Below, piece after piece: positions 31,901-64,000 of a stretch of DNA of 64,000 nt. Source of the stretch: Selaginella moellendorffii (lineage: Eukaryota > Plantae > Lycopodiophyta). Location of the stretch: the NCBI RefSeq assembly GCF_000143415.4, contig NW_003314327.1, positions 582,775 to 646,774 of the forward strand, in the 5' to 3' direction. The notes under the pieces were generated by a model. It was not told where the DNA came from, made no database searches, and was given only the letters and a program-made list of their open reading frames with translations. Position numbers and translations under genes: made by a program. Numbering within the stretch: the first letter of the stretch is position 1; every line of letters begins with the position of its first letter.

Positions 31901-32794
31901 AAGTTGTCAGTATATGTGCGTGCGTGCGTGCGTGCGTGCGTTTTCTAGGCCGTCTTCTTGGCTGGTCTTTTTTGTAACATTTTTTTTCCCTTAATTCTAA
32001 TTTTTAAAAGTACCTACAGACGTAGCGCCCAAAAATACCCCCTTCTTTTTGCGGTTCCTTTATTATTTAATTTGGTATAAGAAAAAAGAGAGGAAATTTT
32101 CTCTCAGTGTTGTGTTGTGTGTGTGTTTTTTTTTTCGGTATAGGGGGGGGTTGTTGATGTCGCTGGCTGCGGTGGTGGTGTGTGCCCTGTGGGTTTTGTC
32201 TTCCAAGTCACTCCACCAGAGAAGAACACACAGTTAGGTATAGGTGGTAGTAGTATAGTTCTAGTTGTAGAGTTGGTTCCAAGGGAATTGGGTGCTAATC
32301 GCGACTGCTCAATCTCTCAAGCAAAGAAAGCTTGGACAGCTCTCTACAATCTAAAAGCCCAGGAACAAGGAAGAAGCAAAGAGTTAGAACAAGAAAAAGA
32401 GGAGGGGAGAGAAAGAGGGGGAGAGAGGCGATGGCGATGGCGATGATCTCGGACTCCTCTCCCCAGCTCGGGCCCCCGGCGACGCTCGATCTCGGGCTGG
32501 CCACACCGGCATTGATGGGAGAATGCTCCGCCGCCGCGGGGGCGGAGCAAGGGGTCCAATTGAGGAGGAAGGGAACGCTGGAGCAGCAGCTGTGAGTTCT
32601 AGTTCTTCTTTCTTCGTCTTCTTCTTCTTCTTCCTCTTCCGGGAGTGATTCCAATTTCCTGCTGGGTCGAGCTCCTCGATACGATCCAGCAACGAAAAAA
32701 AAAAGCCCAGGAGGAGGAGAAAAAAAAGCGCACATACGAGAAAAGAAAGGAAAAAAAAATACACAGGAGAAAAGCCGCGGACGAGGAGCGTAAC

Positions 32795-40948: not shown

Positions 40949-43219
40949 TAGTTAAAAGTTATTATATCAAACTTTCTTCTATTTTTTTTAGCATTAAATA
41001 TATTTTTGAAAAAACTCATAAAAGTTTCTTAATTGCACTTAAAATTTTCAATATAAATTCTTCACAATGTGAGTGCATGGAATATGGAAATAGAATACAT
41101 AAATGTGTATATCAATTACCCCAAAAACCCTAGCTTATATACAGGAACGAGTTGTCTGGATTGAAACTAATTCGACAGTTCAAAATCCAACTACCTTTAG
41201 TAGATGAGCCGGGATTTAGAGGAACATCAGGAGGAGCCATCGGTGGATCTATAGGTAATGCTAGCTGTTCCTGATCACTTTATATGAATTGTTTTAGTCA
41301 TTGTACATGCACAATTTCTGGAGGATCGACCTATTGAACATTATGCCAAACCTAAAAAATTTGTGGTCCAACTTGCTACAACACCTAATATAGTCCCTTC
41401 CATTGAGCAAGAAGCCCTTTAAATAAACCACATAGCATAAGATTAGGAAAATGGACTAATACTAAGTCATCCATTTTATACTCTACAAATGAACAATGAT
41501 AAGAGTTTTAGCATTGTTGTTGTCTCACTTGAATGCAATCTAGGTGTTTGGCAAACTCTACTTGGACTAAGGACTCATCAAATATTAATCCCAAGATCTA
41601 TCATCAATAGCTCGTGGCAATCACGAAGATAAACTCAATTCCGTTGGTAATATTGGATCATGACCACATCATATCTTCAACCAATAGAAAGATTTATGTA
41701 GTTTCTCAATCACACAATAATGTCCCATATGCCACATAGAATAGAAGAATCATAAAGATATGTATAAAGTTTCTTGAAACCTCAAACTACTGTTAAACAC
41801 TCTTTCTCTATTGTGGAATAGTTCACCTTTGTTAGTTGTAATGTATGGCTAATGTATGCAATGGGATGGTATTGATCAGGCACACTCAGGCATTAATACA
41901 CCTCCAATACCAATTGCATCAACACATCTCCAAGACCAATATTAAAAGCATCCAAGTGCAAAATGAAAAGTTAAGTGTAGTTAGAATATGCCAAAACTAC
42001 AAGAGTTATTAATAACTCTTTGAGATCCATAAATGCTTGCTCACAATTAATAGACAACATGAAAGACATTATTGACAATTTCAATAATGCTTGCAATGGT
42101 GTAGTAAAATAAAAAAAAATGATCAATAAAACAGCCAAGATATTGCACCTTGCCTAAGAAGTGTTGCACATCATTTACACACTTTAGAGTAAGGAACTTA
42201 AAAACAACCTTAAATTTGTTAAAATTAACTTTCAAACCTTCACGAGGAATACTATACCTAAAATAAGTGATATTCTTGGACTTAAATCACACTTTGATTA
42301 CTTCAACTTTAAACCAACTTCTCACAACCAATCCAACACTTTATGAATATCACGGATGTGTTCCTCCCAAATCAATCAAGATATCATCAATGAAGTTAGT
42401 AGTCATTTTTGGCATATTGTAAAGAACCTTGTCCATCATCCATTAAAATGTCACTAGAGCATTGTGCAAATGAAACACCATCACCAAAAACTTGTATAAA
42501 CCAAATGATGTATGAAAAATAATTTTGGGAATATTTTCATCAGCCATTGGTACTTATCCATATCTAGAGCAAGATCTAACTTGGTGAACCAACAACTTCT
42601 CCCTAAACGATCGAGGAGATAAGTAGTGTGAAGCAGAGGGTACATATATGGGATTGTCACTTCATTTAACATATAATAGTTAATGCTAAAATAAATACTT
42701 CCATCAGACTTCGTCATAAAATGAGGTTCACATGCCCAAGGACTATACAACTTTAAAATAACACGATTGTCTAAGATCTCCTTGACATTTACATATAAAA
42801 TTGTGATCTCTTTTAGTGACTGATGACAAATATGAACCTTAACTGGATGAGCATCCCAGTTGGAATAGGATGATATGTTACAACCTTGGCCCCAGACAAC
42901 AAGTCAAATTCAAAGATAGCAACATACTCTTTCATAAGTCAATCAATTGCTAAGTATAGAAGAATAAAATGAAAACATAGAAGAAAGTTGTGAGACACAA
43001 AATCCCTAGACCCCAAAGTGGAGCCGGAAAGGGTGCCACATGGTAGTGGCCGAAGCGAAAGCCAAACAAGCATAACACGTTTGGACTAAAAACTCTGACT
43101 TGGAAGGTCGAGGGCGGGAGTGGAGCTCCCAACAAAGTTCTCGAGGAGCGAGCATGAGGCAACCAAAGCAAGGCTCCAAAAAAGGACCTAAAAAGGACCA
43201 ACACATGAGACGTGGAAGA

Positions 43220-43680
43220 GTCCGAGATGGACCCGAGTTGGAGTCCGAGGTGGAGTCCGAGATGGAGTCCGAGGTGGACCCGAGTTGGAGTCCGAGGTGG
43301 AGTCCGAGATGGAGTCCGAGATGGACCCGAGATGGAGTCTGAGATGGAGTCTGAGGTGGACCTGAGATGGACCCGAGGTGGAGTCCGAGATGGAATCCGA
43401 GATGGACCCGAGTTGGAGTCTGAGGTGGAGTCCGAGATGGAGTCTAAAATGGACCTGAGTTGGAGTTCGAGGTGGAGTCCGAGATGGAGTCCAAAATGGA
43501 CCCAAGATGGACCCGAGATGGAGTCCGAGATGGACCCGAGATGGACCCGAGATGGACCCGAGATGGAGTCCGAGATGGACCTGAGATGGACCTGAGATGG
43601 AGTCCGAGATGGAACCGAGACCAAGACCGAGTCCGAGTCCGAGTCCGAAACCGGGACCGAGACCAAGTCCGAGTCCGAGT
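43220..43680 (+). repeat. 11/12-bp tandem array (GAGATGGAGTCC / GAGATGGACCC) followed by 6-bp GAGACC/GAGTCC units, in the 5' LTR
   Basis: Read directly; homologous arrays at ~59945-60470 and, inverted, at ~39790-40180. Confidence 0.95.
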
Positions 43681-45907
43681 ATGAATACTAATACAGGTAG
43701 TTGGGTGAAAGCCCAAAGCGATCATCCCCCAGGGGGGGGGGGGGGGGGGGGCTGCGGGGGGTTCCAAAAGTATAGTAGGGAGAGTGTGGGGGTTGGAGCC
43801 CAGTGGAGCCAGTTTGGCCAGGAAAGGCCAGTTTGGGCCAGGAAAGGCCAGTTTGGCCCGGGAAGGCCATACCCAGTGTTGGGTGATGAACTGACCACTG
43901 GGAAGTCCAAGACTAGAGTGAATACGGACCGACAAGTGGGGTAGCTTGGTGAAGTGTTCAAGAGCCGGCTCTAGTTCCCCCAGGAGATCGACTAGCCGAT
44001 GCTCCCAGTCCAAGTGTGGGTGGCACTACCTACTTGGATACCAGGCGTGGCTCAATGGAACCTCGCTCTAAGCCCATGGCTAGAGCACCCAAATGCGGAA
44101 GGCAGGGAGAGTACCCATGAGGCCCGCGTAGGGCCACGGTGTTCCGAAATGTTGTCCCAAAGGCCCAGACTGTGGAAAGGAAGAGGAGTAGTCCTCCGGT
44201 GTAGTGACCAAGGATACAGTCGAGTGGTGAGGAAGTCCCAGAGGACCGTGGGACTTAGTGGTCGGCCTATGGGCCTCGATCCAGTGGCAGTGTTGGCGAA
44301 CATGGCCATGGGCAGAACGGGACTTGGTGAAGACCGGAAAAGGGGTATTAAGCTCTATTTCGTTAAAGTGGGATTTATTCAGTAAAATGGGACTAGGTAC
44401 AAATTTTCAAGTATTTGAAAATGACGTGAAATTATATGTTTTTTGTCCAGGGGCTAGACATATCTGGGGCATGGTGACTAGCGCGGTGACTTTATGTCCA
44501 AACTGTGTCCATCTGGTTGTATAATAAATCTCATTGTCAAGGTGAACAAGCCGAATCTGAAGCTAAAGAAGAGTGATGGCATGCGCGCACACACTATTTG
44601 TTTGTTCATTGAGCGTGTGGTGAGCTTTCCAAGATGAACGTCATTCCTATTAGCCAGACATATAACTTAATGGTGAGAACATTTAGATATTATTCAATGT
44701 TATCTTTTTCTAACGAATCTAATTGTGAAGGTGTAGCAAGAGGCATTGCTAGTCTGGAGAAGTCATTTAACTCATTTGACCCTTAGTGTATTTTCATGAA
44801 ACTAAATAACATTCATATTATTAAGGAATTTCTCTAGTACCTTTTTTTTACGACATAGAGGCTTGCATTTCTTTCAAAGGTGATTTAGTAAAAGGCCTGA
44901 GGGCACATGCCATTCTATTTCTTAGACCGGTATTAAGATATACTAGTGCAAAGGGAAAAAGGTATTTGGTGATCAAGTAAATGGCATGAGGGCACACGCC
45001 ATTATAAGCCTAAGCGCTAGTGGACACCTCCTTTTTGGTACTCTCAGCGGTACTATCATCCTTCTCCGGGTCAGTTGTTTTGCTTTGGATTGTTGTCTCT
45101 GACGTTACTGGGGCGTTCTCGATAGTTGTTAATGTTGCCGTTTGTTCAGAAAAATGATCACCTGGAGTATAGTACGGGGAGTTTGGAAGACTTATATATT
45201 CTACATCTTCACCTATCTCCTTCTCCGTCTCCTTTTCTGCCTCACTTACAGATTTTGTGCTTGCCATGAGAACGCTCTTCACCCTAAAATATGGAGTTCA
45301 TTGTGTTATAAAAGGAAACCAACACACACGCTGCAAGGGAATGATGGTACATAAAGCACGTAAGCCCACAATATGGATTTATGTGCCATTAATATGGGCC
45401 ACACGCCATATTATTAGATTTATGCACGTGTGATTGGTAAATGCATATGTCACATCATCTTTGTTTTACCTCACACACTATATCAGGCCTAATGAACCAT
45501 ATCACATGTGCGCACATGCTATATATATGGAGAAGTATTATGCAAGGATAGAAAAATTCAATGCATGATTGTGGAGAGCAATGGCATGAAGCCACATGCT
45601 AAATAACATTTTAGAGAAAGAATTAAAATAAAAACATGCAAACAGTACTGAGTGGACCAAGACTTAGAAGTGCACAATTGAATGAGGTATTTCTAATAAA
45701 TATTTCACTCACCTCATATAGGAATGGCTACCACTCTCAAATGGCGTATCGCCTCATGCCATCACCTCGCAATTTGTTATAACAATCCGATGAATTCATA
45801 TTCGGCTTGTTCACCTTAAACTTTAAGTAAGATTTGCTAGAACAACTAAGAATTTATACTTGTTATTTGTATCATCTCACCTAGGAATGGCGTAAGGCCA
45901 CATGCCA

Positions 45908-48900
45908 TCACGCCTCCTCTGATTCAGATTCGGATTGTTCACCTTGAAATAAAATACATTAGAAACTTAGTAAAGGAATATTAATGAATCTCACCTTGAA
46001 CCCGGGTTATGAATGCTCTTGCTGCATCTCTTGCATGGTCTAGCAAGGTGATGGTGGCACTCTGCTTCCGCATCCAACCATGCACAACATTATCCACCGA
46101 TATGCTCATGCTGAGATCCCTTGGATTCAGCACCTATCTCTTTTCTAGGCAATCCTTCGTATATCCGGAACTTGGCCTGAACCACTCCACAGTTACATTG
46201 AAGGAGTTAGTTTCTGCGTCCTCCTCTGCATCAGTGATGCAGCGCCCCACCCATATCATTTGTTTTTTATTACTGGGTCTGACAAGCACGACCATTCCTT
46301 TGCAGACCTGTACTGGATTGAATGCTGAATCCGGCTTCTTGTTCCTCGGCCCACAATAGTGATCCTCAACATCGTTATCTGTCACTACATTTCCAGAGGA
46401 CATTGTTCCGCTACTATCTGGTGCTCTGGGTTCTGGCCAAAAGGACTCTTCCAATTCTTCATATACAACCGGCCCATTTTGGATAGCAGATATAATCTTC
46501 TCCCAGTATTCGAGCAAAGGCTTGCACCTCTGAAAATAGGATTCTCCACCAAACACCAACCCCCTCTTCCAGAAGGCAATATGCTGTCTAATCCCAGCCA
46601 CTATACTTTCCTGGTCTTTGAGTCCATCCGGGTGCATCGGCCGTGGGGAACCCTGAGGAATCATAGGTTCCCCAGTTATGGGATCTCTCTTGAAGAGTTC
46701 AATGCCGTCCACTGGCAGCCACACTGTGTCCCATTCTTTCATCTTGTACCTCATCACTGGAGCACCGTCACACATGTTGAAATGAAACTGAAGAGGCTTG
46801 GAGTGGCCAATCAGCGTTTCGGATCCGTCCCTGATGTAGCCTCTTACAAACCCCTTAAAGTCTGGAACCTCTGTCAGAAGTGCAGCTTCAACAGTGTCTT
46901 TGATGCAATTTTGGAATTCATCGTAGAGTTGTGGGAGGGTGAGGACATTGGATCGCCGGAGGGACTCTGCCAGGTGACTGAACATGGCATCGACGTCTTC
47001 ATGAGTGTGCCCAACCATGAGAAAGCCAAGTGTAACCGTTTCAAATATGCCTTTGGCAACAAGCATCGCCAAGTACGCGAAGATGTACATGTTTTTGTTC
47101 TCACTGCCAGCATTGTCTGTTTGGAGCAGAAGATGGGGTGGAAGGCCACATCGGCCGCAAGAACTTCCTTGAGATTCTGTTTCGTTTGGATGAGGCTGTG
47201 CATTCACCGGGCGACCAGCCTCGTCGGAATGGCATGAGGCCTCACGTGATAACCCTACAATCTGATGGCCAACATATTCACTGGGATGGCATGGGGCCCC
47301 ACGCGATACTGCAAGCCTTTGCTCCTCCTCCAGCTGAACCCTGTATGGGGTTCGATCGACAAGGGCCTTATGCAAGGGTTGGCCGTTCAACCCAGTCTGC
47401 GCACTTTGCAGAGACCTTAAGTGTTTTGCTAGGGACGCAATCATCATGTTTGCACCCCCGCCACCCCATAGAGGTACAAAGAAGTTCCCATAGTTCTGGG
47501 CACCATGCCCATGAGCGATTATGCCAAATAGAGACACAAGCAGCTGCATGGATGAAGAGATTGCCTTAGGGGCAGGATTGAGTCGAGGTAAGCACGTCTT
47601 TTTCTGGTCCATTTTGTCGTGGATGATGCAAAGGTAAGAGTCAGGTCTCTCCATGGAGAGAATCCTGTTATGATAATATGCAGTCCTGCAGCTTCTCTGC
47701 TCGATGTTGTGGTCGAGCCGCCTTCTAACCAACGTCTCTCGCTCTTGAGCGCTGTAAGAATTCTTCGACAAAGCCATTTTGATAGCAGTGCACTCGTCAC
47801 ACTTTGAAAAGCTAGAGTACTTTCCTATACTCACATCCCTGAACCTGTTGCTCCACAATCTACTAAATCTAGATTGGCTCAGCTTCCTGTAGCCATTACT
47901 CTGGAGTTCCCGATTCACATCTTTCAATATGGCCCCCTTGGTATACATGGAAGGGAGAACTCGTTGGGTGTCTCGTGTTTCATCTTCCAAGAGGCGGGTT
48001 TTATGTGGTTGCTGCTCGCTACATGTCTCGACAAACCTCTTGAAGATTGCCTCTCCATATACAACATGACCCCTGGTTTTGTGCATACCGTCGTTCCCAT
48101 GGACTGCCTGTTGAACCCTTTGTTCCTCGAACTCAGTTTTGATTCTGTAGAATGTGGTTCGAGGGACTCCATAAATGATTCTCCATGCCTTCATGCAGAC
48201 CAAACCCCTCTGGAAGACCATGCCCCCCACCTGATGTTCTGAAGCATCAACAGATGACCGTAATGCCTCATACACAAAATTGCGAGCTGCCTTCCAGGAC
48301 AATGTCTTGTATCTTGCTCTCTCCTCTTCAATAGCATCCCAATCAGCATGTTGACAGCACCTCCTCTTGCAACAAGCAACTGTCGAGACCATTCGAACCT
48401 CCATCGCCATTTTCTGCCTTTTCGGTTCGTTGCTCAGATCCCTTTGGCTGCGCTTTAGGAAGGTGTACTTTCTTTTCCCATGAAGAGATGTTCTGTCATC
48501 AGTTGTAGTGGTGTTTGATTGTGAATCCTTCACATTCTCAAACACTAAGTGCCTCAATTTCCACCGCACAATGCTTCCAATAGTCAGACTGTTTTCTTCT
48601 GTGTCAACAACCTCTAAAATCGCTACTCCAATATCATCCCAGCCCAATTCTTGATTAGCAACCGCATCTCTTGGATCGACAACTGTGGCTAAGCCCTCAG
48701 CTACCACCTCCCCCTCGGGGTTGTTTAGAAACACCTTTGCCTGAATCCATGTAGCACGGTTCTTAAGATCCACGGAGGGAACATGCGTCGCACTTGCGCT
48801 GTCCCCAACATCTGCTTTCTTCTGAAGATTTTTCAAGGCAGCAACAACATTTACCCCGACGACCATCTCTCCTCGTTCAATAGCGACCACATTCCCATCA

Positions 48901-49049
48901 AAGACAGTCTCTACTGATACAGCAGCATTGCCTTCCCCAAGCCTTTGACAGTGTATAACAAAGTTCTGATCCATAGACACAAGGGTCCCTTTTGCAACTC
49001 TCTTCCCACCATTCAAAATGTAAACCTTTTCCCCAACCCTGAAGGCCAT
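45908..49049 (-). CDS. Sola-like DDD transposase with N-terminal duplicated Tnp1-like domains and C-terminal BAH/SH3-like domain; one premature TAG
   Basis: 971-aa ORF with KCDEC...H, IIHDKMDQ, LQTDNAGSENKN and FLMVGHTHEDVDAMFS. The frame continues past TAG 46134 to a GTGAG donor, then a short exon GEQSESESEEA* (stop 45908). Confidence 0.85.
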
Positions 49050-49237
49050 TCTGAAAGTGCAGAAAATAAGTTAAAACCATACAAAAAATGATTGGAGAAT
49101 GGCCTAAATCATAACATACCAAACAACCTCAATAGCATGAGGCCACATGCCATTATTCAAACATGCTATTGACACCCACGTGAAATTTCGCATTCACAAA
49201 ATTGGCATGAGCCCTCATGCCATTAGTGGTACCACTA

Positions 49238-49420
49238 ATGGCATGAGGCCTCACGCTATCTTTGGCCCCTACTAGCCTGTTGCTATATTCCTTTTGCCTT
49301 GCTGCAACTGTATATATTTTTGTGTGCGTGACTAGTCACCCATACAAAAATATATACAGTTCAAAAGGAATATGGCAATAGGCTAGCAGGGGCCAAAGAT
49401 GGCATGAGGCCTCATGCCAT
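49238..49420. repeat. ~183-bp near-perfect inverted repeat (hairpin) capped by two 22-bp palindromes
   Basis: Centre GTGACTAGTCAC (~49328-49339). Arms pair over ~85 bp with one 9-nt bulge. Confidence 0.92.
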
Positions 49421-49611
49421 CTTGATATACACACAGCTGCAGGCAAGTAAAAACATACATGACAATACGCTAGCCATGAAATTGCAAGGGCCCAAGATGG
49501 CATGTGGCCTCATGCCATTTCTAAATGTGGTCCTAAGCCATTCCATGGTGAACATACCAGGAAGCACAAGTGCCGAATATCAAGAGGAAGCGGTAGCCAC
49601 ACCAAAGACAG

Positions 49612-49682
49612 TGCCGCTCGCAACACCGCAACTACTCGTAGCGCCGCTCGCAACACCGCAACTGCTCGTAGCGCCGCTCGCA
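49612..49682. repeat. 30-bp CG-rich tandem repeat (~2.3 copies)
   Basis: GCCGCTCGCAACACCGCAACTRCTCGTAGC x2 plus a partial copy. Confidence 0.9.
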
Positions 49683-51749
49683 CAAACTGCCACTCGCAAT
49701 GGCACTCGTAATGCCGCAACCGCTCGTAGACGCATAAACCACAGCTCACAACGCCGCTTACACAAGCAGCGCTCATTGCGCTCAGTGGAACCAAGAACAC
49801 GGCACACAAAAATGATAGACCTAGGAATGAGTTCGAGAATTCAAAAATAACACACGCTTGAACGTCACATCAAATCCTCTGACAAACCAGATCTTATGAC
49901 TCCTCTGACAAATTTCAAACTGAGTAGCTTCTAGACTTTGCTGTCGGAGGTTGAACTTTGTCACATCATGTCCTTGCCTCGATCCAGCTGTGCCATGTCA
50001 GTGATTCGAACTTTGCCATGCCATGTCAGCGATCCGCGCCAAGATTATTCGCCGTGTAAAGGAATAATTATGCTGTGTGTGTACGTCCATTTATGGCAAT
50101 ATAAGGCCACACACCATTCAAAGAATAATGCTAGTCGAGCATTTTTTGGTGCATTTTTGGGTTCAAAATTGCATGAGCCCACACGCTATAAAGTTTACCT
50201 GTACCAAAAATAGAAACAGCTTTATTTACTTGGGAATTTAAGTGGTTGAGGCATTTTTAAACTTACAAACACATGCCCTACTTACATTCCTTTGGTTGCT
50301 TAAAATTCAAAAATATTATAAACCTTTCTTTTTGCATTTTCAATGTTTTCAATTATGGTTTTTGATTTTTGCAGGACCAGCCTAGTAATCTATTTGCATC
50401 CCGTCATGTTTATAGCTAGCTTTCGTTTGTCCCCTTCGCTAGCCTGAGATACATTTGCTCGGCATCTGCCTCTTACTGCCTGCCAGAAAGGGCATCTTTC
50501 TTCACGCAGCATTTGCCACATGTTTAGGGTTTAGCAATTCAGTAGCTTGATAAACATGCAAATACAGAACTTGATGCAAAATCCTTTGATATGTCACAAT
50601 ACCCCTAGGACCATAAACACATTTCAATAGAGAGGGTCCTTTCATTTCATAACTCCTTACGTAGATCTTGGTGAAACCAGAGTTAGTGAAGTTAGTTTCT
50701 TGTGATCCTGCATCTGATTGTGATGTCCCTTTGCAGTGTCGATGGAAAGGTCAATGCACACCAAACTGTAAAATCTTGGAGCAAAATAATGGTCGGATCT
50801 ATGGCAAATGCCCCTGAAACATTGTAAGGCTCGTGTGGTCTCATGTGGTGTCCGATCGAGATGCTTCTTTGCAGGGTCATCAAGAAAGACATTGTATACC
50901 ATTCTGTAAAATCTAGTTGCGATCTAACGGTTGGATCTCCAGAAAACTCAAAAAAATCTCGCGCGTGTCAGAATATCTTAGGAATATACTCCTATGTGAC
51001 CCTGAAAATGGCATGCGGCCCCACGCCATTCAAGAGATAACGCCAGATGACGCCGAGAATTTTTTGGTGCATTTTTTGGGTTCAAAATTGCATGAGCCCA
51101 CACGCTATAAAGTTTATCTTTGCCAAATAGAGAAAAGTTTATCTGTGTCATGTGAGGTAGTTACAGTCCTTTGTGTTTGGCATCTGCCTCTTGCAGCATT
51201 TGCACTGAAAGGGAATTTTTCTCCATTCAGCATTTGGCCCTGAAAATGGCATGCGCCCATACGCCATTCAAGGAATAACGCCACAGGACACCTGGATTTT
51301 TGGGTTTAAAATGTTTAGGGTTTTTTGGGTTTTTTCAAAATATTTTGGGTCCAACGTTTTTTGGGTTTCTTTGGTTCAAAATTGCATGAGCCCACACGCT
51401 ATAATATTGATTTGAGAGAAAAATAGAAACAGATAGAATTTCTTTATTTAGCTGAACATCTGCCATTTTTGGAAATACAAGATGCTTTGGAATATCCAAT
51501 CATGCATGGTATAAATATAGCGAGGGTATTAAATGATATCCCAATCATGATCTTTCTTTTGGATTTCGCGTGCATGCAGTCCGAGGAATGATAACGTTGC
51601 GGATTTCTTTTGGATTTTGCGTGCTTGCATGCGCGCAGCAATCCAGAAATTAATGGTGGTGCCCAAGTCCGAGGAATGATGACATGGCGGGATTACCAAC
51701 CGTTGTGACATTTCGCGCATGTGAGGTTAGGTTTTGCATTTTGCTTTAT

Positions 51750-51945
51750 ACTCGCGCTTGCACACTCGCGCTCGCGCTCGCATCACACTCGCGCTCGCGC
51801 TCGCATCACACTTGCGCTCGCATTGCGCTCCCACTCGCGATCACGCTCACATTCGCGCTCATCTACCTTCTCTACAGGTTTCTCGTGTGCATCGGCGTCC
51901 ACTCGCGCTTGCATCACACTCGCGCTCGCATCGCGCTCGTGTGCA
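51750..51945. repeat. CpG-dense low-complexity array (CACTCGCGCTCGCAT-like units) upstream of the cargo gene
   Basis: Repeated CTCGCG/CTCGCATCACA units read directly. Confidence 0.9.
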
Positions 51946-52164
51946 TCGGCGTCCACTTCAAGACACACCCAGTTTGTAACTTCGCCGCCAACTCCGCCGC
52001 CCACTCCGCCACCCACACGCAGCCCACTTGGCGTCCCGGGAGATTTCAGCGCCACTCTCCAACTGTAAGTGGCAGAGTAGCCTTGCTGCTACGATCCGCT
52101 GCACACACAGTGCATATTCGCCAGCGAGTCCGGCCTCGATTGTCACGCCTCCATTCGGCTTCAA

Positions 52165-55100
52165 ATGGTAAGTCTTTTAGGCCAAGTAGAAAATGGCATG
52201 AGGCCACATGCCATTCAGTAGCAACATTGGCATGCACCGATTGGGCTCTCGAGTGCAATCCGGTTACAGATGGCGTGTAGCCTCACGCCATCTTAGGATG
52301 CAGCCTCAAGACATCTGATGCAGTGGTGAATGGCGTGTGGCCTCACATTATTTCCAGATGCTAGCTTTTCATCTGTCAGCTCTAATTGTTGTGCATTTCT
52401 GAACAGGCGAGGAATTGCGTTCTTCTTCCAGCCACTGTCAATGTGGATGCAGAGAAGGGGGAGGAGCTCACCAGTTGGACTTTCGGGATGGAAGGCGAGG
52501 ATCTGAGGCTGTACAACACAGATGGTGGGAGAAAAGAATGCATGGGGATCCTCATCCAAGTGACAGACACTCCATGCAGTTCCATGCAAGAATATGGACT
52601 GGCACTTGTGGTAGAGACAGCGTCCGCCTTCAAGATCCACCTTGCACATCCTAGCGGCTTCCTGGAGGGGGGCAGCGGCTATGAGGAATTCCTAGAGGGA
52701 GCTAGGGAGAGGTTGTCCAGGAGGCCCACAATTTCAAAGACGCTGTGGGTCTATGAAAATCACATGGAATCCACGGACCTCACCTACGGCGATGTTCAAA
52801 AACTATATTCCAACATTGAGCCGTTGAGAGTGCCTCCAGTTCGCGAAGCGAAGGGGAAGGGGGTCGATCTAGAAACTACCCCGAAGCAAAAAAGGGTGGT
52901 CAAGCTCAAGCCGACGTCCGACTCTCTTGCAGCTCCAAAAAAGAAGCTACTCGGTGATGCCATTGCCTCGGGTTCGAACACTACACCCACCAAAAAGAAG
53001 AGCCGCAAAGAGCAGAAAGAGCAAGAAGAGGCAGCAAAAATCGTCGCAGATAATAGTACTTGTTACTATTCCAACAAAGTATATACAATCAACGTGAGCC
53101 GTATCGACATCCAAAGCAAATACAACCACAGGCTAGTATCTGATGAGTGGGTGGAGAAACTGAAGCAGAAGATGCTGGCAAGTCCAGTAACACCCGACAT
53201 CGCAGACGTGATCCCCTACTACCGAACAATGAAGGGCGAGACGAGGTTTCCAGACTTGATCAATAGGAAGGTGTTGGACGATCAGAACATCCGGTTCTAT
53301 GCCGTCTCCGGGCAGCATTCTAGCTTGGCGATGCAACAGATAGTTGTGGATATTATGGTGGGCGAGGAGGTGAAGAAAGTCTTCAAGACAAGAGTTGTCC
53401 GCCTGATAAAAGGCAACTCGCCCCTCCGATCTATCATATCCATCTCCCACGCGCAGAATATCAAGCAAGAAACGTGCTACAAATCGGGTCTGCACGAGAC
53501 ATTGGCACGAACACGGAAGCTCTGGGTTCAACTGAAGAAGCCACAAAAACCAGGACAAGGACGTGCACTAGCAACTAGCGCTTGGTAGGTAAGCCTCGTT
53601 GCATGTGGCATAGCATGTGGCCTCACGCCATTTCCATTGCAGGAATTCTCGAGTCTTCTCTCGAAAACACTGGGGGTCAATGACACACTCAGCATCCATA
53701 ACATTCTACTCGCGACAAAAGTTGTTTTTGACAAATGGGTAGATGTGCTGAGGAGGTACCATGACGGGGAGTTGCTAAACTCAATGGGTGTGGAGGACGG
53801 CCGGAAGCCCAATGATTTGAAGCTCAACGCCTTGCGTTTCTCGCGGTCTCTAGACGACGACGACCTTCTGACAGTGGCTAATGTTCTTCTACGTGGTGAG
53901 GTAGTCTTCAACAAGACCAAAATGACTCCCAGCCATATTATGACATACGAGGACTTGTGCACGACTCTGAGAGCTCGTGCGCTATTGAAGGATTGGATCT
54001 TCGAGTAAGTGGCCGTGGAGAGGGTGAGCATCGACACCACGCAAGAGATGATGGAAGAGCTGGAGTTGTCAAATGAAGACATCGACGACTACGTGAAGGG
54101 GGCCCCCAAGTTCATCGATCTGCTGTGGGATGCCACGAAAAGTAAAGCTGAGAAGTTGGATCAGTATCCAAATTTCATTAAAAGGGATGTCGACCGCCGG
54201 CTTCAGAAACAGCTCGACCCCGCAGCAGAGGCCTATCGAGAACCTTACCGGGTATACGTGAATTCGGATGAGGATCAAAGGTGGAGGAGCATCGTTTCCC
54301 GCGGAGATGAGCAGGTCAAGAACATCTTTTGTGTGATGGACTTCACAAACGAGGAGATCACTCATGCAGACGAAGTCAGCTCCATCATTGACTTAATGGT
54401 GGGACTTGCGGAGGTGGAATCTTCAGTCCACTATATGATCTACGACTCCGAATCCTATCACAAGTTCTGGAAGGCCTTGAACGAGGTGAAGGCTCGGTTG
54501 AAAGGCAAGGAGATGCAGGAGATCCATGGGATAATGGCTAAGAAGAAGATACCGACGAATGTCCGCATCTTCACACTCGCCCTTGTTATTGGTCCTGCAG
54601 CAGAGTGGGACTGGAGTGACTTCCCAGCTTCGTTCGATAAGGCCGATCGAATTGATCTGAGGGAGGTCAATTTACCCGTGCCTGAGGAACTGAAGACGGC
54701 TATGGAGCTTTCGAATCCAGAGAAAGCTCCAGGTGCAGCATGGGAAATGCTCAGCTGGGTCTTCAACGCAATAGTACCTGCTTCCGACTCCAAGGGCAAA
54801 TGCGTTGTCGAGTACAACTGCGGCGGACTATTCTTTCGAGCCGCACTACTCAAGGGTGTCCCGTGTGTTGCGGTGACAAACTCCATTGAAGAGGTGACTT
54901 CAATGAAGCATATAATTACAGTTGCCAAAGAAAAACAGTATCTTCTCTGCGAACGGCTTGGAGCAATGGTGATAGAGAACCGGCCAGTCCAGGAGGTGGC
55001 TGCAGAAATCAACCAAATGGCAGATGGAACGGTATATCAGAAGCCATTTGATCGGACAGACACCAGTCATCATTTATGGCATGTATATTGTCTAGCCAAG

Positions 55101-55277
55101 CACTATCCGCATCTCCATAATCTGCTCAACCGGATGGGTTCTTCGACCACTGAACATGAGCGTGGACGTATTAGAGAAGAGATGGCATTACTATTGGGTT
55201 TAAATCCTGATAGTGTGGAGAGTGATGAAATTCCAAGATTATTGTATAGGCGTTGGAGGCAAAAAATAACAGTCTGA
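52165..55277 (+). pseudogene. Transposon cargo gene (~940 aa): ParB-like domain + degenerate DNA-methyltransferase-like fold; two in-frame stops
   Basis: ATG|GTAAG at 52165 is spliced in frame to 52407. Exon runs to 53588 (TAG at the donor), then intron 53589-53642. In-frame TAA at 54006, then open to 55277. Domain calls are by motif eye-match only. Confidence 0.7.
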
Positions 55278-58200
55278 GATGGCATGTATTTATTTAAAAA
55301 TGTAACTTATTATGGCATGGGGTTCCATGCCATTGTATTAATATTAAAAGACAATTCTTTGAGAGGATTTGCATTATACTAGAAGTGTTACAGCGTGTTA
55401 CAGCATGTTATTGGAAGTCTACGAAGTTGTTTTATTAATAAGGGGAAAGTAAAGATTGAATGGGGACTTGGGCTCCACCTAGACTCGGAACAACTGAGTC
55501 AATATTAAAAGGATGGAAAGAAATTGGACGACGATGACAAGGAGAAGAGAGAGGTGAAGCAGTGGCAGGGGGAGGAGAAGTGATTGAGTAGACATTTCCT
55601 TGTTTAAAATAAAATGGCATGTGCCTCAATGCAGTTGAATTTTGTTATATTTATATATTATATAAAGGTTTGGAAACCTTATTTTACAAGTGGGATAATG
55701 ACAATTCCCACTTTAACGAAATAGAGCTTTATTGGGGAAGGCTATTCCCCATGTCTGTGGGCATCCTAAGGATGCTAAGGAGTGGATCTGGAATGATCAC
55801 TCATGGACGGATGACTCAGTCCTTGAGAAATGGGACTGTAATGCAGGTGGTGTTAGACCACCAGTGTGACCAAGGTAAAGGGGTATGGCCTTAGCGTAAC
55901 GGGCTGATATGTCGGTGGTACCTTGGGGTGTTGGTCATGGGATCGGACACATGGAGCACTTGGATCAAGTGCAAAGGTTGAGTGGCGGGAATGCCATTCT
56001 CGGGGCTAACAAGCCCAAGTCTGAAATAGGACTTATGGAGGTTGTGAGTGAGATTCCTCCAAGTGGTTGAAAGTGTGGTTAAGTGACTAAAGTAGAATGA
56101 AAAATTTAGTCGCTTACAACTTGGTATCAGAGCTGTTCCTTAGTCCGACTCTTATTAGTGGCCAAGTATATCACCGCTTGTATTGGAATCGGAAGGTCCT
56201 AGATATGGACCTATCCTTGAGGAGTAGCATGTCGAAAGGACATGGCTCTCCACTCAAGTTCATGCATGAACTTGTGCACGGTATGATGGATGGAAAAGGG
56301 CCAGTAAGGGAACGACTTTGGGATCTTGGGAACAGTATAAGGGTTTCCTCAGAGAGCTGAGGATGTGATCCAGATGAGCGTTTGACGCAACAAACGAGCT
56401 AATGTAGTTGTGGTAAACAACTATAGTTGGGATCACGGGAAAGATGCAGACTCCAAAACAATAAAGGAGTCACAAGATTACCCTTATATGGTTGAGGCTG
56501 GTACTCATAAATTTGAGACCGGAGTTGTTGACCGTGGGAGGTCAAATACAAAAGAGGACACCAGTCCTTGAAATGGTAGTCGGGGCTACCTCTAATAAAT
56601 GTTGGAACAACCCAAGGAGTTAGGGGTGTACTTAAAGATGAGTTGCTATTCTCATCACATGGACAAGTAGTCCTAAGGGGGCAAAGGTTAACCCCAAGAA
56701 AATCATCAAGTATCGGAGTAACGCTTGCAAAGATTGTCCTTGTAAGTAGGACATGAATACAAGAAGTTGTATTCCAGTGAATTGGCACCTCTAAGACTGA
56801 GACCTCGCAGGTTGTTGGATTAGCAAAGTCCAAAATGCTGGATGACTCAAGCGGAGTCAGAGAATGGTCTTAAGGGATTGGTTGGAGCATTTGGACTGAG
56901 GTGTATGGTGCCCCATGAGGTATGGGGAGGATCATAAGATCCAAGTATGAGAACAGTAGGTATCTCATTGATGGCAGAATGTGCCATACTAAAGTTGTGG
57001 GAAAGATGTTCCCAGAAGAAAATAACTTTGGCCCAGAGTTGGGTGCAAACACTATGGTGCAGTGTTAACAGATAGTTAGTATGAGGAACAACTATATTGG
57101 TCTTGGCAAAGACCTAGACATTAATAAGTAGTGTCATAAATGTAGGCTCGTGGGGCCAATGGTGTGGAGACACCAAATGTGCCAAAGTGTGATACCTTGA
57201 GGTTATGATGGTGGGTTCATAAAAACCCCTTGCCAAGGGAATCCCAACGAAAGCGGGAATGGCATGGCCTAAGCTGGAAGGCATGCGGTTGGAGTGTGGT
57301 GACCCAGATAATGATAGAGGTGTGGAAGCATCAAGTAATGAGTTGTAGGACTTGACAACTATGGGGCAACTAAGCAAGAGGTGCAAGATAATTGGTTAAA
57401 TGGGTAGAAGGTAGACTTCTTAATGGCATAAGAAAGTTAGATATACCCTTACGGGGGATAAATTGCTTATGTTGCGAGACAGTAAGTCAATGTCGTAAAA
57501 GGAAATGCTTATTGTCAGAAGGCCATTATTGGGACACCCAAACACTCTAGAACACCAGAAGGTGGTGTTTCGTGTTGCAAGGGCAATAGATAAGGCCCAA
57601 GGGACTAAGTCCTTAGTGAATGATGGATAGTAGGTGCTATCCAAATATCCAAGGTTGTGGAGACAGGAGAAGACTATCTACCCGAATTGGACAAAGCCAA
57701 AAATGGAATTTTGGCAAGGCTAGTGATGGGCATATAAAGGCCCATAAGCAGCAACGTTAATCCTGATGTGTGGGATTATAAGGTGAGCATGCCCAAGATT
57801 GAGGAACCACTCCCTAGGCTATCGGGTAGGTTCATCCTTAAGAATACTTGCTAAAGCATAGTAAAATGTGCAAAGCTATCCTCTTAGTCTGAAGGAGAAT
57901 AACCAAAGGAAATATAGGGGGCCAAAAGGCAAGTAGTATTGGGATGGAACTGAACCATAGAAATCGAAAGGCATATCCAACGGTGGTTATTCGAGTTGGG
58001 AGTGGAGAATCAAGAGGGTGCTCGAGGATGTTGTTGCTAGCAACCGTGATGCCATGGGGAGTCTAAAATATGGAATTGTCCATGTTAGACTATATAGCAA
58101 CTATAAAGCTTGCGAAAAGGGAGGCCTTAGCAAGCTAAGGGACAGAGTTTCTTCAAGGTTCCCAAAGACGATTCTAGGTAGCTTAGTACCTAGAAATGCC

Positions 58201-59944
58201 AAGTGTAAATGGTTCATGGAACGCACGAAATCAGAGTGGCGTAGCAGAAGCATGGTCTTGAAGCTTGCCATGAGGCAAGGCTATCAAGGTTAGGGAAGTA
58301 GTTCCCGAGTGTTCAAAGAGAGAGCTTTGAACGAAAGTTTATGGTCAAGGACTTTCACGCTTATGCAGGAACCATGTTACAGTGGTTGGAGGACTTGCCA
58401 AGCGAGATTGGCAAATCGGGGGAACAAATGCCCTAGTTGAAGGTGATAACTTCAAAAAGGGTGGGCCATGGGGCCAAGCATGGAGGAGTCCATGCATGAT
58501 CACAGACTTGTCAAGTGAGAGGACTTGGCAGTGTGGAGGAACTATGTTCCTATGCTGTGATCTGTAGCGCGCTTTAAGTATAAATTGGTGCACCGGCGTG
58601 ATGAGTCACGCCAGGCATCCTGGGTGATGCCATCCGTAGATGCATATACGGAGGTTGGGTTCGAGTCCTGACCCTCTAGTGCTTGGGTTCGAGTCCCAAA
58701 TCACTAGGGCGTGGTGATGGTTTGAAATATGAGGACACTCATATTTCGGTGGTCATGGACTCTCATTGAGGAGACTGGCTTGGGCACACTGAAAGTAGTT
58801 TCTAGAAAGGACCTATGGGAGGGTCACAATGTTGGGCCGTGGAAGGGGCCCATAGCTGAAGTTGCTAAAGAGACCTACTAGGGGTGAGCACTCTCTGGAT
58901 TTGGCAAAGTGGAGCTTTGCCATGGAACCAAAAGAATACCTCAAGGAAGGAGGTAGTGATCCTTTGTTGCTTGATGCAACAATCAATGGATAGGAGCAAA
59001 AGACTAGTGGCCAAGTTTGGGCCATGGAATTTAATGGGAGGAATCCAAATGGCGAGGTTAGCCAAGGAACACTAATGTGTTTGATGCTAACGGATTGTGG
59101 GAAAGGAAATGGACTTCCAAGGTTAAATTCCCAAGTGCTCCACTTTGGCAAAGTGAAAGCTCCAAATGAGGAGCGGCAAAGTAGCCAAAGGATAGGGCTG
59201 TGGACAGCCCTGGCACAAATGATGATAATTGGAACGTAGTGCCAAGGGTGGCACAAAATAGAAAAGAGCATGATGGTGCCCTCAAGTAGAGAACTTCCTA
59301 GGATAGGGAAGTGGACTTGCACAATATGTGCAATGCAAGGTGTCGAAGACACCTAGGAAATTGACTTCAAGAAGTCAAAAGTAAATGTTCCAAAGTGCAA
59401 AGGTTATGTCGATAGAATTTGAGACTACTCGAGAAGGAGTAGTGGAATTGAGTTAGAGATGATGTCTCTAACGGGTTTAGCGAGAACTGAACCAATAAAA
59501 GGGAGCAAACCACCCCAGGTGGCCGAATGAGTCTCTATATTAGAGAGACTATGCTCCTTAGAGGATGGACAAGGCATGGTGAGCCTTTGGTGTCAAACCA
59601 TAGACAAATATTGGCTGGGTGCCAAGGATGGAACTGGTAATACATGCGGGTGTTACTTTATGAGAGGGTTTACCGTTCGATGAGGACATCGAACTTCGTC
59701 TATGGGTGGTGGAGTTGTGAGACACAAAATCCCTAGGCCCCAAAGTGGAGCCGGAAAGGGTGCCACATGGTAGTGGCCGAAGTGAAAGCCAAACGAGCAT
59801 AACACGTTTGGACTAAAAGCTTCGACTTGGAAGGTCGAGAGCGGGAGTGGAGCTCCCAACAAAGTGCTCGAGGAGCGGGCACGAGGCAACCAAAGCAAGG
59901 CTCCAAAAAGGGACCCAAAAAGGACCAACACATGAGACATGGAA

Positions 59945-60470
59945 GAGTCCGAGATGGACCCGAGTTGGAGTCCGAAGTGGAGTCCGAGATGGAGTCCGAG
60001 GTGGACCCGAGTTGGAGTCCAAGGTGGAGTCCGAGATGGAGTCTGAGATGGACCCGAGATGGAGTCCGAGATGGAGTCTGAGGTGGATCTGAGATGGACC
60101 CGAGGTGGAGTCCGAGATGGAGTCCGAGATGGACCCGAGTTGGAGTTTGAGGTGGAGTCCGAGATGGAGTCCGAGATGGACCTGAGTTGGAGTCCGAGGT
60201 GGAGTCCAAGATGGAGTCCGAGATGGACCCGAGATGGAGTCCGAGATGGACCCGAGATGGACCCGAGATGGAGTCCGAGATGGACCCGAGATGGACCCGA
60301 GATGGAGTCCGAGATGGACCCGAGATGGAGTCTGAGATGGACCCGAGATGGAGTCCAAGATGGAACCGAGACCGAGACCGAAACCAAGGCCGAGGCCGAG
60401 ACCAAGACCGAGACCGAGTTCGAGTCCGAAATCGGGACCGAGACCGAATTCGAGTCCGAGTCCGAGTCCG
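59945..60470 (+). repeat. 11/12-bp tandem array in the 3' LTR of family B
   Basis: Same units as 43220-43680, with a longer array. Confidence 0.95.
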
Positions 60471-63172
60471 AATACTAATACAGGCAGTTGGGTGAAAGCC
60501 CAAAGCGATCGTCCCCCAGGGGGGGGGCTGCGGGGGGTTCCAAAAGTATAGTAGGGAGAGTGTGGGGGTTGGAGCCCAGTGGAGCCAGTTTGGCCAGGAA
60601 AGGCCAGTTTGGGCTAGGAAAGGCCAGTTTGGCCCGGGAAGGCCATACCCAGTGTTGGGTGATGAACTGACCACTGGGAAGTCCAAGACTAGAGTGAATA
60701 CAGACCGACAAGTGGGGTAGCTTGGTGAAGTGTTCAAGAGCTGGCTCTAGTTCCCCCGGGAGATCAACTGGCCGATGCTCCCAGTCCAAGTGTGGGTGGC
60801 ACTACCTACTTGGATACCAGGCGTGGCTCAACGGAACCTCGCTCTAAGCCCATGGCTAGAGCACCCAAAGGCGGAAGGCGGGGAGAGTACCCATGAGGCC
60901 CGCGTAGGGCCACGGTGTTCCGAAATGTTGTCCCAAAGGCTCAGACTGTGGAAAGGAAGAGGAGTAGTCCTCCACCAAGGATACAGTCGAGTGGTGAGGA
61001 AGTCCCAGAGGACCGTGGGACTTAGTGGTCGGGCTTGTGGGCCTTGATCTAGTGGTAGTGTTGGCGAACACGGCCATGGGCAGAATGGGACTTGGTGAAG
61101 ACCGGAAAAGGGGTATTGGGGAAGGCTATTCCCCATGTCTGTGGGCATCTTAAGGATGCTAAGGAGTGGATCTGGAATGATCACTCATGGACGGATGGCT
61201 CAGTCCTTGAGAAATGGGATTGTGATGCAGGTGGTGTTAGACCACCAGTGTGACCAAGGTAAAGGGGTATGGCCTTAGTGTAATGGGCTGATATGTCAGT
61301 GGTACCTTGGGGTGTCGGTCATGGGATCGGACACGTGGAGCACTTGGATCAAGTGCAAAGGTTGAGTGGCGGGGATGCCATTCTCGGGGCTAACAAGCTC
61401 AAATCTGAAATAGGACTTATGGAGGTTGTGAGTGAGACTCCTCCAAGTGGTTGGAGGTGTGGTTAAGTGACTAAAGTAGAATGGAATATTTAGTCGCTTA
61501 CAAAAGCAATAGGGGGACAAAAGTGATAGAAGTAGAGGTAAAAGCAAAGAGATGAAAAAGAACATAAATGAGAAGAATAAAAGAAATATAAAAAAGTATG
61601 AAACAAAGGGGAAAAACCTTAAAGTTATATTTGGCATGATTGTGCCACAATCAATCCATACCAAGGATGAAGTCAAAAGTGTAACTTGGCACCACCCATA
61701 ATGATTGGTAGTTTAAGCTCAAGATTGCCCACATGCACAACTAAGGTCTGCCGTATCTTATACACATACGTGTGTACGACCATTGCTATAAAAAATAAAA
61801 ATTAGTTTTACTGCATGAAGCAAATGCAGATGGCAATAGGCGGTAGTAACCCAAATAATAAAAGATAAACTCAAACTTATATCAACTAACATGGAGAGAA
61901 TAATAGGAAACCTTTTGTTATAAAAACAAGCTTAAACACTAAATGAACTAATGCTGCCTTGGTAATACTTATGAAAGAAATATTGGAAAGGTCATTTACT
62001 TATTTATGTAAGGACCCTTTGCTACTCGTGCGAATCCTCATCTCTTGGAAATATAGTGTCCAAACCTTCCACTACAACAGCACCAACAAAATGTTATTGA
62101 CGTTAAGATCTCCATCCAGAAAATAAAGGTTGCCAATCTGGAAAATGCCGACAACTCTAATAAGTGTGATCAATTTCATCACACTCCTAGCAGCGGACAT
62201 CACGTTGATAACTATGTTGTCGCTTTTGTCCTTGAACTCGGGCACCAGCAATATCAACCTTTATTGGAACAAGACCATCTCTCAGATGAAGTGGAGTTGA
62301 AGGATATCTAGTGAAAAGTGGAAGAGAAAACATCTCATAACGTTGTACCAAACAAAGAGCATTGTCAAGAGTTACTAAAGCAAGTGTATGTATAAGTCTT
62401 ATAAGATATTGATAAAGTGTTAGCCACAACATTCCTAATTTGATTTGTTTTAACATATTTGGCTCTGCATGAAGCAAGAGGTTTTGGAAATGAACGCTAA
62501 ATTGCACTATTAACTCAAATGGCCTTGATGAAGATAATGCAATTCTTGGAAGGTATTATCACAATTGTCTATATATATAAATATGCATTGGAAAACATTT
62601 GGGAGAATGCTTTAATTTGCACAGATAGTTGCGCTTAAACCATTGTACCACTATAGCACTATCTCTTGGGAAACTCATGCGAATGTCAAGTATCATCCTA
62701 GAAATGATATGTGATAATCATTATAAAGTGCCCAAACCAATGGTACACATCATCTTTAGGATTCCCATAGAAAAATTTTGGTCGGATGCAAGGATTAGCA
62801 TTAAGAGTAGGAAGAGATGTACCATGTGCTATGAATGTTGCCATCAATTAAATTTGATTGTTCAATTCTAAACACATAGCATGGAGCAATTGCACCAACT
62901 ACTACTCAAAAGTCAAAGAAGAGGAGGCTACTACTCTATTATGAGGATGAATGAAAAGGAAAAAGCAAAAAAGAAGAAATTGAAAAAATTATAAAATAAG
63001 GGAAATTTAGATGATACAAAAGTTAGATTTAAACCAAAATACCAAAGCTGAATTTTTTTTGTGATATGTTTTATCTGATGTATCCCAGTGATAGCTTCTT
63101 CATCAATATTTAGTATAATATCATATTAAAAATTTTATTTAAACTTTAATTTGTTTTTGAAAAAATTGAATT

Positions 63173-64000
63173 TGTGAGGGCCAAGTGTATGGCTACAATG
63201 CCGTATACTAATATTAGCATAGTAGGATTTTGGTAGCCGTCGGATTAGTTTCAATCTGGACCACTCGCTCTTGTATATAAGCTAGGGTTTTTGGGCTAAT
63301 TGATATGCACATTTCTGTATTCCCTTTCATATTCCATACACTAACATTGGTGGAGGTGAGGGGCACTTTTAGTTGTCCCCGGGGAGTGCTTGGATTTGGG
63401 ATTTCGATTTAAATCTAGCTTTTGCATCGTCTAGATCTAGCTTTTTCTATTTCCTTTCATTTGTTCTTTCCTTTCAGGATTTTGGTTTAGATCTAGCTTT
63501 TTGCATTGTCTAGATCTACTATTTCCTTCCAGCTTTTTGTCATTTCTCTTCTTTTGCTCTTTCTTTTTCGTTCATATTCATAGCAGATCAGCAATCTCCT
63601 CCTTTGACTTTAGAGCAGTAGTTGATTCAATTGCTTGATGCTATGCACTTGCAATTAACCAACCAAACTCAATTGATGGTGGCATTCACGGCATATGGTC
63701 TAACTTCTCCTGCTCTTGGTGCCAATCCTCGCGTTCGGCTGGAGTTCTTTCGTGGGAATCCTGGGAATGATGTGTACCATTGGTTTGATCACTTCACAGT
63801 GATTGCTATATATCATTATTGGGATGATGCTCGATGTTTGCATGAGTTCCCCATGTGTCTCCAAGGGACGGCATTGCAGTGGTACAACGGATTGAGCACA
63901 GCCACTTGTGGGGATTGGAGTGTTCTTCTAGATGTCTTCAAATGCGTCTTCGAACATGCTGACGATTGTGATGATGCCTTCCAACAATTGCATTATCTTC
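63173..64000 (+). mobile_element. Second family-C Ty3/Gypsy element: 5' LTR 63173-63346, tRNA-Ala-like PBS, gag start; runs off window
   Basis: TGTGAGGG...CACTAACA followed by TGGTGGAGGTGAGGGG. Gag FRGNPGNDVYHWFDHF...LQGTALQWYNGL...DWSVLLDVFKCVF is homologous to the minus-strand gag at ~62700. Confidence 0.85.

Follow-up and report, generated by a model that had tools for sequence, protein, structure and literature searches.

The window analysed here, the whole 64,000-nucleotide stretch of the lycophyte Selaginella moellendorffii taken for study (NCBI RefSeq assembly GCF_000143415.4, contig NW_003314327.1, positions 582,775 to 646,774 of the forward strand), contains a Sola1-like DNA transposon with two divergent genes, a transposase and a cargo gene with a predicted ParB-like fold. 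Between the terminal inverted repeats (TIRs) of this element lies a dispersed family of 22-bp palindromes, confined to the element within the window, that very probably represents selected sites for a dimeric protein encoded by the element itself. The element, its target-site duplications (TSDs) and its genes are placed as follows:

44350–55729: Sola1-like DNA transposon, 11,380 bp, inserted in the first long terminal repeat (LTR)-like repeat of a retroelement (TIR/TSD scan, empty site)
44346–44349, plus strand: left TSD, TATT, 4 bp (TIR/TSD scan)
44350–44373, plus strand: left TIR, 24 bp, perfect (TIR/TSD scan)
55706–55729, minus strand: right TIR, 24 bp (TIR/TSD scan)
55730–55733, plus strand: right TSD, TATT, 4 bp (TIR/TSD scan)
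45994–49049, minus strand: main exon of the transposase with DUF7869 core (Pfam PF25273, E 1.1e-41)
45010–45297, minus strand: possible last transposase exon, uncertain, a 95-residue low-complexity frame (open reading frame (ORF), donor-like site near 45993)
52165–55277, plus strand: cargo gene model, ATG at 52165, divergent from the transposase
52168–52406 and 53589–53642, plus strand: cargo introns 1 and 2 (predicted splicing)
52407–53588 and 53643–55277, plus strand: cargo exons 2 and 3 (predicted)

A Sola1-like transposon with two divergent genes

We class the element as Sola1-like because its TSD is 4 bp long and its TIR core is placed as in an insect Sola1, with AAAGTGG at positions 16–22 in both (PMC3845634). 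The lone target site seen here is TATT rather than the AWWT preferred by Sola1 (PMC3845634), one site saying little about preference, and the target sites of Sola1-1_Ec32 are biased to end in A (PMC12477816). An empty insertion site is seen in the second LTR-like repeat, at about 61114, and also in contigs of sequencing runs (joint 44345–55730). The TIR core, AAGTGGGA, recurs in inverted orientation just inside the right end (55688–55713) and in variant form within the left end, at 44385; these copies are candidates for the true subterminal transposase sites.

Sola transposases are RNase H-like proteins with a DDD triad, and we take DUF7869 to correspond to the Sola transposase. In the window protein, which is 26–37% identical to nine database relatives and has one further near-copy at 96%, the aspartates D480 and D483 are conserved in 11 of 11 aligned rows, D647 in 10 of 11, and D687 and D689 in all nine rows with letters there. 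An N-terminal TNP1/En-Spm-like stretch gave a weak match under the cut-off (PF03017, E 0.06). The frame at 45010–45297 had no match in a Pfam scan, and no relatives of the transposase were found in viral and prokaryote contigs.

The transposon family appears to be high-copy, as judged from sequencing runs: at least half of the element's words are present in 19 of 24 runs among the matches listed, and a high copy number is likely because 17 of those 19 runs are assemblies of just 3–4 Mb from one sample. Changes private to the window copy relative to the run contigs are mainly C to T or G to A, and 31 of the 49 listed lie at CG or CHG sites, a pattern that a methylated element would be expected to show. 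Three stop codons of the window copy are absent from other copies, one in the transposase (46134–46136) and two in the cargo. The window cargo has also apparently lost about 830 nt or more at 54952–54954, the loss being bounded by 3-nt microhomologies. In other copies a donor-like site follows at this point, so the full cargo gene is longer than in the window copy. Contigs of three runs branch at 52064–52101, upstream of the cargo ATG, into about 130–230 nt of other sequence; this stretch perhaps occurs in a second context, in a variant or derivative family.

A palindrome family confined to the element

The original prediction placed some 27 dispersed, non-tandem copies of a 22-bp palindrome in the transposon and saw no full copy beyond the TIRs. 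All 27 starts exist, 25 of them as full copies and two as half copies:

44576–45908: palindromes at 44576, 44892, 44981, 45501, 45581, 45741 and 45887, half copy at 45388; downstream of the transposase coding sequence
47229–47307: palindromes at 47229 and 47286; inside the transposase ORF, variable insert, residues about 585–610
49132–51402: palindromes at 49132, 49202, 49238, 49399, 49497, 50168, 51008, 51087, 51246 and 51381, half copy at 50096; between the divergent genes
52193–52351: palindromes at 52193, 52270 and 52330; cargo intron 1
53610–53631: palindrome; 54-nt cargo intron 2
55279–55635: half-site at 55279, directly after the cargo stop, and palindromes at 55312 and 55614

In a mismatch scan allowing up to six differences from the consensus, the 25 full copies all lie within 44576–55635, and with a leave-one-out symmetric matrix they score 12.7–36.2 bits, compared with 7.0 for the best site outside the element. 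The copies at 45388 and 50096 keep the right half only and score at background level (2.8 and 5.7). Every one of the 27 sites is thus between the TIRs and none is in the remaining 52,620 bases, so a scan of the window gives nothing comparable in density outside the element. A de novo search for palindrome families recovered 23 copies in the element; each of three shuffles gave two at most, and each of five other stretches of the window three at most. In none of eight tandem-repeat rows is the palindrome the repeated unit, in keeping with the proposed non-tandem arrangement. The dyad symmetry originally described holds for the dispersed family and less well for its members, which are individually imperfect, with 167 of 225 stem positions forming Watson–Crick pairs. 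The palindrome is also unlike the TIR, sharing at most seven identities at any ungapped offset.

Separately, GC-rich short tandem arrays occupy two parts of the divergent promoter region (49613–49682 and 51761–51940, with 30-bp and 23-bp units).

Placement and variation of the copies

By our own gene model, 11 of the 27 sites are in the divergent intergenic region and eight downstream of the transposase coding sequence; three are in cargo intron 1, one in intron 2, two after the cargo stop and two in the transposase coding sequence. The intron positions and the location of some copies after stop codons agree with what had been predicted. Coding sequence makes up 54% of the element on the same model and holds only 2 of the 25 full copies (p 1.6e-6), which bears out the suggested preference for non-coding DNA; both coding copies (47229 and 47286) lie where the transposase has a variable insert between its catalytic motifs.

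The two halves of the palindrome vary independently, with 7 compensatory pairs observed and 10.1 expected by chance. If G–U pairs are admitted on the minus strand, 187 of the 225 positions pair instead of 167, with mismatches persisting on both strands. Because the halves vary independently and pairing is incomplete on either strand, we read the palindrome as two half-sites for a dimer rather than as a hairpin.

The spacers between copies had been called mostly unrelated, which is partly true. When flanks were compared, 8 of 300 copy pairs were more alike than 99.9% of random pairs; four flank-sharing groups take in 12 of the 25 copies, some of the links arising solely from a neighbouring palindrome inside the 30-nt flank; 17 flank-independent groups are left, and recent local segmental duplication therefore fails as a full account of the family. 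Sites probably do multiply by local duplication, and since this is a likely route of multiplication it is no rival to selection. The palindromes at 44576, 45741 and 45887 have about 25 nt of flanking sequence in common, inverted at 44576 relative to the other two.

Other palindromes in related loci

Among 80 related loci kept from 219 confirmed transposase loci, none has the window palindrome as a family; weak matches, two at most per locus, occur in 11 of the 80. Relatives carry palindromes of their own. Fourteen loci lie outside a large AT-rich group, and six of these have 4–10 copies of a different 16–20-bp palindrome, against at most two in shuffles; the other eight have one or two copies, and most of the eight hold little non-coding DNA. 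One locus, L011, matches the window element in layout: an intron, the 3′ region and the linkers between domains all hold palindromes, and a palindrome also spans the stop codon. Five identical copies in L011 have unrelated flanks. One 22-mer is common to L002, L003 and L004 (69–89% identical), whereas clades 35–59% apart have different palindromes.

When a matrix built from L026 was applied to 33 other loci of the AT-rich group, it detected 196 sites (five loci with none), compared with 1.6 in shuffles; these loci are kin to each other and so not independent samples. The sites recur at offsets of about +320, +750 and +1100 downstream of the transposase in subfamilies 44–76% identical, and 46–49-bp arrays lie upstream; in L012 and the AT-rich group many palindrome copies sit in 46–49-bp tandem units. 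A search of 43 related loci for an intact left TIR with TSD gave no convincing case.

The AT-rich group also has a divergent, decayed coding-like stretch upstream. Near transposases of this group there are NIF phosphatase-like and protease-like fragments (L070:5197–5595, L022:1600–2598 and L032:1–648; the phosphatase-like match is to PF03031, E 4.9e-8 in L070), which are possibly other cargo genes.

The cargo gene

We read the cargo as a predicted ParB/Noc/KorB-fold protein with a methyltransferase-like tail, both parts being without a canonical catalytic motif. Its regions are:

53013–53585, plus strand: ParB-like nucleotide-binding domain, predicted fold (model pLDDT 82.5)
53643–54005, plus strand: helical region after the ParB domain, candidate DNA-binding domain, kept in P0020 and P0026 (alignment)
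54009–54950, plus strand: methyltransferase-like region (ESM Atlas leads)

The best structural matches of the domain model are Noc, ParB, PadC and KorB: Foldseek gave Noc (7ol9) at E 1.5e-4, and VIA-align gave PadC at Z 10.3 (root mean squared deviation 2.8, 100 residues aligned) and KorB at Z 9.5 (2.7, 94). SerK (Z 8.2) and sulfiredoxin (Z 7.8) score close behind, so the ParB-like fold alone does not imply DNA binding. A single-sequence model of the whole cargo has a pLDDT of 33, and the fold evidence thus covers the ParB-like domain alone. Neighbours of this domain in the ESM Atlas are unnamed eukaryotic clusters, fungal DUF3723 and ParB_N, and a search with exon 2 gave 17 matches (E 1e-8 to 1e-3). 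For the tail, one ESM Atlas lead (0.94) is a methyltransferase-named cluster without a common Pfam family and another (0.88) a cluster with N6_N4_Mtase in 39% of members; the catalytic [DNSH]PP[YFW] motif is absent from the read-through of the window copy.

The cargo had no match in Pfam or NCBIfam, nor in the PDB by sequence. Homologues of near or greater length were not found, and there were no relatives in phages, viral contigs or plasmids (the plasmids queried with P0020). None of five scanned ORFs of the element is a ParA partner, the window copy lacking part of the full element. Contigs of the one possibly RNA-derived run (X20) cross intron 1 unspliced.

Candidate readers of the palindrome

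Four observations favour dimer binding sites and thereby support the interpretation first proposed from the sequence: coding avoidance, independent half-sites, lack of likeness to the TIR, and the clade-specific palindromes of the relatives. That such sites are selected and serve a dimer encoded by the element is very likely. Our best explanation is that they bind a dimer of the ParB-like cargo protein, to which we give a probability of about one half. An earlier weighing had found the cargo a doubtful reader and the transposase a somewhat better than even one; we now prefer the cargo because of the ParB fold, the mismatch between palindrome and TIR, and the published pairing of ParB genes with inverted repeats in an unrelated superfamily. 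Noc and ParB bind palindromes as dimers. So does KorB (PMC11790492).

We propose that each cargo subunit would read one half-site. Short local duplications would multiply the sites, which would persist where proteins are left unharmed, and site and reader would change together between families. Bound throughout the element, the cargo protein would label it as self; it may also control the divergent promoter region, with its 11 of 27 sites, and may keep the element expressible against host DNA methylation in the manner of VANC. As the Box II arginine and the methyltransferase motif are both missing, the cargo is expected to be a static binder or recruiting platform, not a CTP-dependent sliding clamp or an active methylase.

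Several points weigh against the cargo as reader. Its Box II reads GQH followed by S, and GQH followed by S, T or L stands in place of GxxR in 17 of 17 sequences (the window domain and 16 of the 17 exon 2 matches, the 95-residue P0027 being excluded), and the GxxR arginine is required for binding nucleoside triphosphates (PMC12704722). A profile search for a helix–turn–helix (HTH) in the helical region gave no match, but has little power, since the ParB domain itself goes unrecognised when set against the R751 ParB-family protein. The 80 transposase loci yielded no ParB-like gene to a hidden Markov model with positive control, to tblastn or in pooled copies; the closest loci span 1.4–5.6 kb, in most cases not enough to extend to a gene 3.1 kb upstream, and the long loci are decayed. 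One group of long loci nevertheless has kilobases of upstream DNA in common with no ParB signal. Promoter control and protection from methylation are suggested as purposes by analogy with VANC and TnpA, and transposases alone can be sequence-specific activators (bioRxiv 10.64898/2026.08.24.746577).

In a tentative alternative, the palindromes are internal sites of the transposase itself, probably read through its N-terminal TNP1/En-Spm-like or zinc/HTH-like region, and serve to bring together the two ends of so large an element or to activate cognate copies. TnpA and the AtMu1 transposase act in this way, but they bind termini or TIRs (bioRxiv 10.64898/2026.08.24.746577), whereas the sites here span the whole element and differ from its TIR. 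At least five clades with no detected ParB gene have palindromes alongside the transposase, and the weak PF03017 match lies at the N-terminus of the protein. The motif also follows the transposase tree, as it would just as well under joint inheritance of cargo and transposase. L006 and L008, whose right ends are related, show no palindrome family in the available sequence (best 1 and 2 copies). If the transposase does read the site, Sola1 transposases have an undescribed internal binding code.

It is improbable that the element has gathered sites of host transcription factors for its own expression. The copies cluster around divergent promoters and in introns, and we take some variants to resemble plant NAC or TCP cores and the L011 motif to hold a DREB-like core; yet the 52.6 kb of flanking DNA, host genes included, has no copy, and an unrelated 17–22-bp word in each clade would call for a different host factor each time.

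Also quite improbable is an origin of the repeats as neutral remnants of local duplication or as decayed tandem arrays. The flank-sharing groups and the tandem units of L012 and the AT-rich loci are what such an origin would produce, but the 17 flank-independent groups keep the motif while their flanks are lost, the five identical L011 copies have unrelated flanks, and the downstream offsets recur among diverged subfamilies. Least probable of all is a role as RNA hairpins or DNA cruciforms (splicing, small-RNA or recombination signals), which dyad symmetry, placement in introns and untranslated regions and the gain from minus-strand G–U pairs might suggest, given that compensatory changes are not in excess, mismatches remain on both strands and an Rfam search gave nothing at the gathering threshold.

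Comparison with known systems

The closest parallel to the cargo-bearing element is Sola1-1_Ec32 of Ectocarpus, a large Sola1 with a 4-bp TSD and an opposite-strand gene combining ParB-like and N4/N6-methyltransferase parts, whose product was proposed to bind and modify its own transposon (PMC12477816). The window element resembles it in transposon type, TSD length and opposite-strand gene, the ParB part of the likeness coming from fold and orientation and the methyltransferase part from ESM Atlas leads. The two differ in host (a brown alga and a plant), in length (21.5 kb and 11,380 bp) and in TIR (282 bp and 24 bp), and the window element adds 25 mapped dispersed sites and degenerate catalytic motifs. 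A palindrome is mentioned nowhere in the main text of that report and once in the five supplements examined, for another element (PMC12477816). In Bostrychia, the Plavaka PAG3 ParB-like accessory gene adjoins inverted repeats and was likewise proposed to bind its own element (bioRxiv 10.1101/2025.02.11.637652). As in the window element, accessory gene and inverted repeats are found on one transposon; PAG3, however, accompanies an EnSpm/Plavaka transposase, has its ParB domain fused to a 2-oxoglutarate oxygenase and has tandem arrays beside the gene, whereas the repeats here are dispersed element-wide. The likeness to the algal accessory proteins is one of fold, layout and description, not of sequence alignment.

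A functional parallel is provided by the VANC21/VANDAL21 (PMC5735166) and TnpA/Spm (bioRxiv 10.64898/2026.08.24.746577) systems of Arabidopsis, in which an element-encoded protein binds motifs and demethylates. As in those systems, the motifs here are family-specific, concentrated in non-coding parts including introns, and amplified by local repeats. The VANC and TnpA motifs are 8–10 bp long, and those of VANC have a single orientation, in contrast to a 22-bp palindrome; VANDAL21 and Spm are Mutator or CACTA elements with proteins unrelated to ParB, whereas the window element has a DUF7869 transposase and a cargo of ParB-like fold with no Pfam match. The element-encoded reader is known for VANC21 and TnpA and putative for the window palindrome, binding and demethylation having been shown there and the present system being known from sequence and predicted fold.

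To bacterial ParB/parS, Noc/NBS and KorB/OB the cargo is linked by its predicted nucleotide-binding fold. The parS and NBS sites are multiple palindromes on a replicon, an arrangement like that described here. KorB/OB shares this arrangement (PMC11790492), and ParB–methyltransferase fusions are common in phages (PMC12704722). Compared with the bacterial proteins, the cargo lacks the Box II arginine, has a putative DNA-binding helical region where an HTH would be expected and no ParA seen, and is encoded by a eukaryotic, intron-containing gene on a transposon.

A Sola1 with an opposite-strand ParB–methyltransferase gene is therefore already in print for Ectocarpus, and self-binding has been put forward both for it and for the Bostrychia Plavaka. 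Apparently new are the land-plant host, the dispersal of sites through introns and linkers with avoidance of coding sequence, and the turnover of palindromes between Sola1 clades. A literature search found, among the papers listed, no land-plant report of such a system (subscription journals and Repbase Reports lying outside its coverage), no dispersed intron or linker sites or palindrome turnover between Sola1 clades (the Ectocarpus FASTA and Bostrychia supplements lying outside it), and no paper mentioning DUF7869. Two algal genome papers of 2025 proposed that transposons are bound by the ParB-like accessory proteins they encode (PMC12477816; bioRxiv 10.1101/2025.02.11.637652). To this the window element adds an explicit candidate site of 22 bp, in 25 copies, in an apparently abundant plant family, and the other palindromes of its relatives offer ready-made controls for specificity. 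Should the cargo prove to read the site, a fold that binds centromeres in bacteria would have become a self-marking system of transposons, parallel to VANC and TnpA. We suggest, more speculatively, that several unrelated superfamilies of eukaryotic DNA transposons might have in common a portable self-recognition module derived from ParB/parS, in which a ParB-like dimer and its own dispersed palindrome would co-evolve in each family, coat the element and shield it from silencing. With the family intact in other copies, this would be a land-plant case in which such a module could be examined directly.

Surroundings in the window

The genes flanking the element include Nop, tRNA synthetase, F-box/kelch and plant-type F-box leucine-rich repeat genes, a content suggestive of a land plant. 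The transposon lies in the first of two repeats of about 1.8 kb, each with an 11/12-bp tandem array, that belong to an LTR-type retroelement at about 43000–61505; a more diverged, inverted copy is found at about 38800–40360. At 32603–35524 there is an intronless, GC-rich ORF of 973 residues, with no Pfam match at E 0.01, which we take to resemble a domesticated hAT-type gene. From 62530 to the window end at 64000 extends a pair of long inverted repeats, 71–74% complementary.

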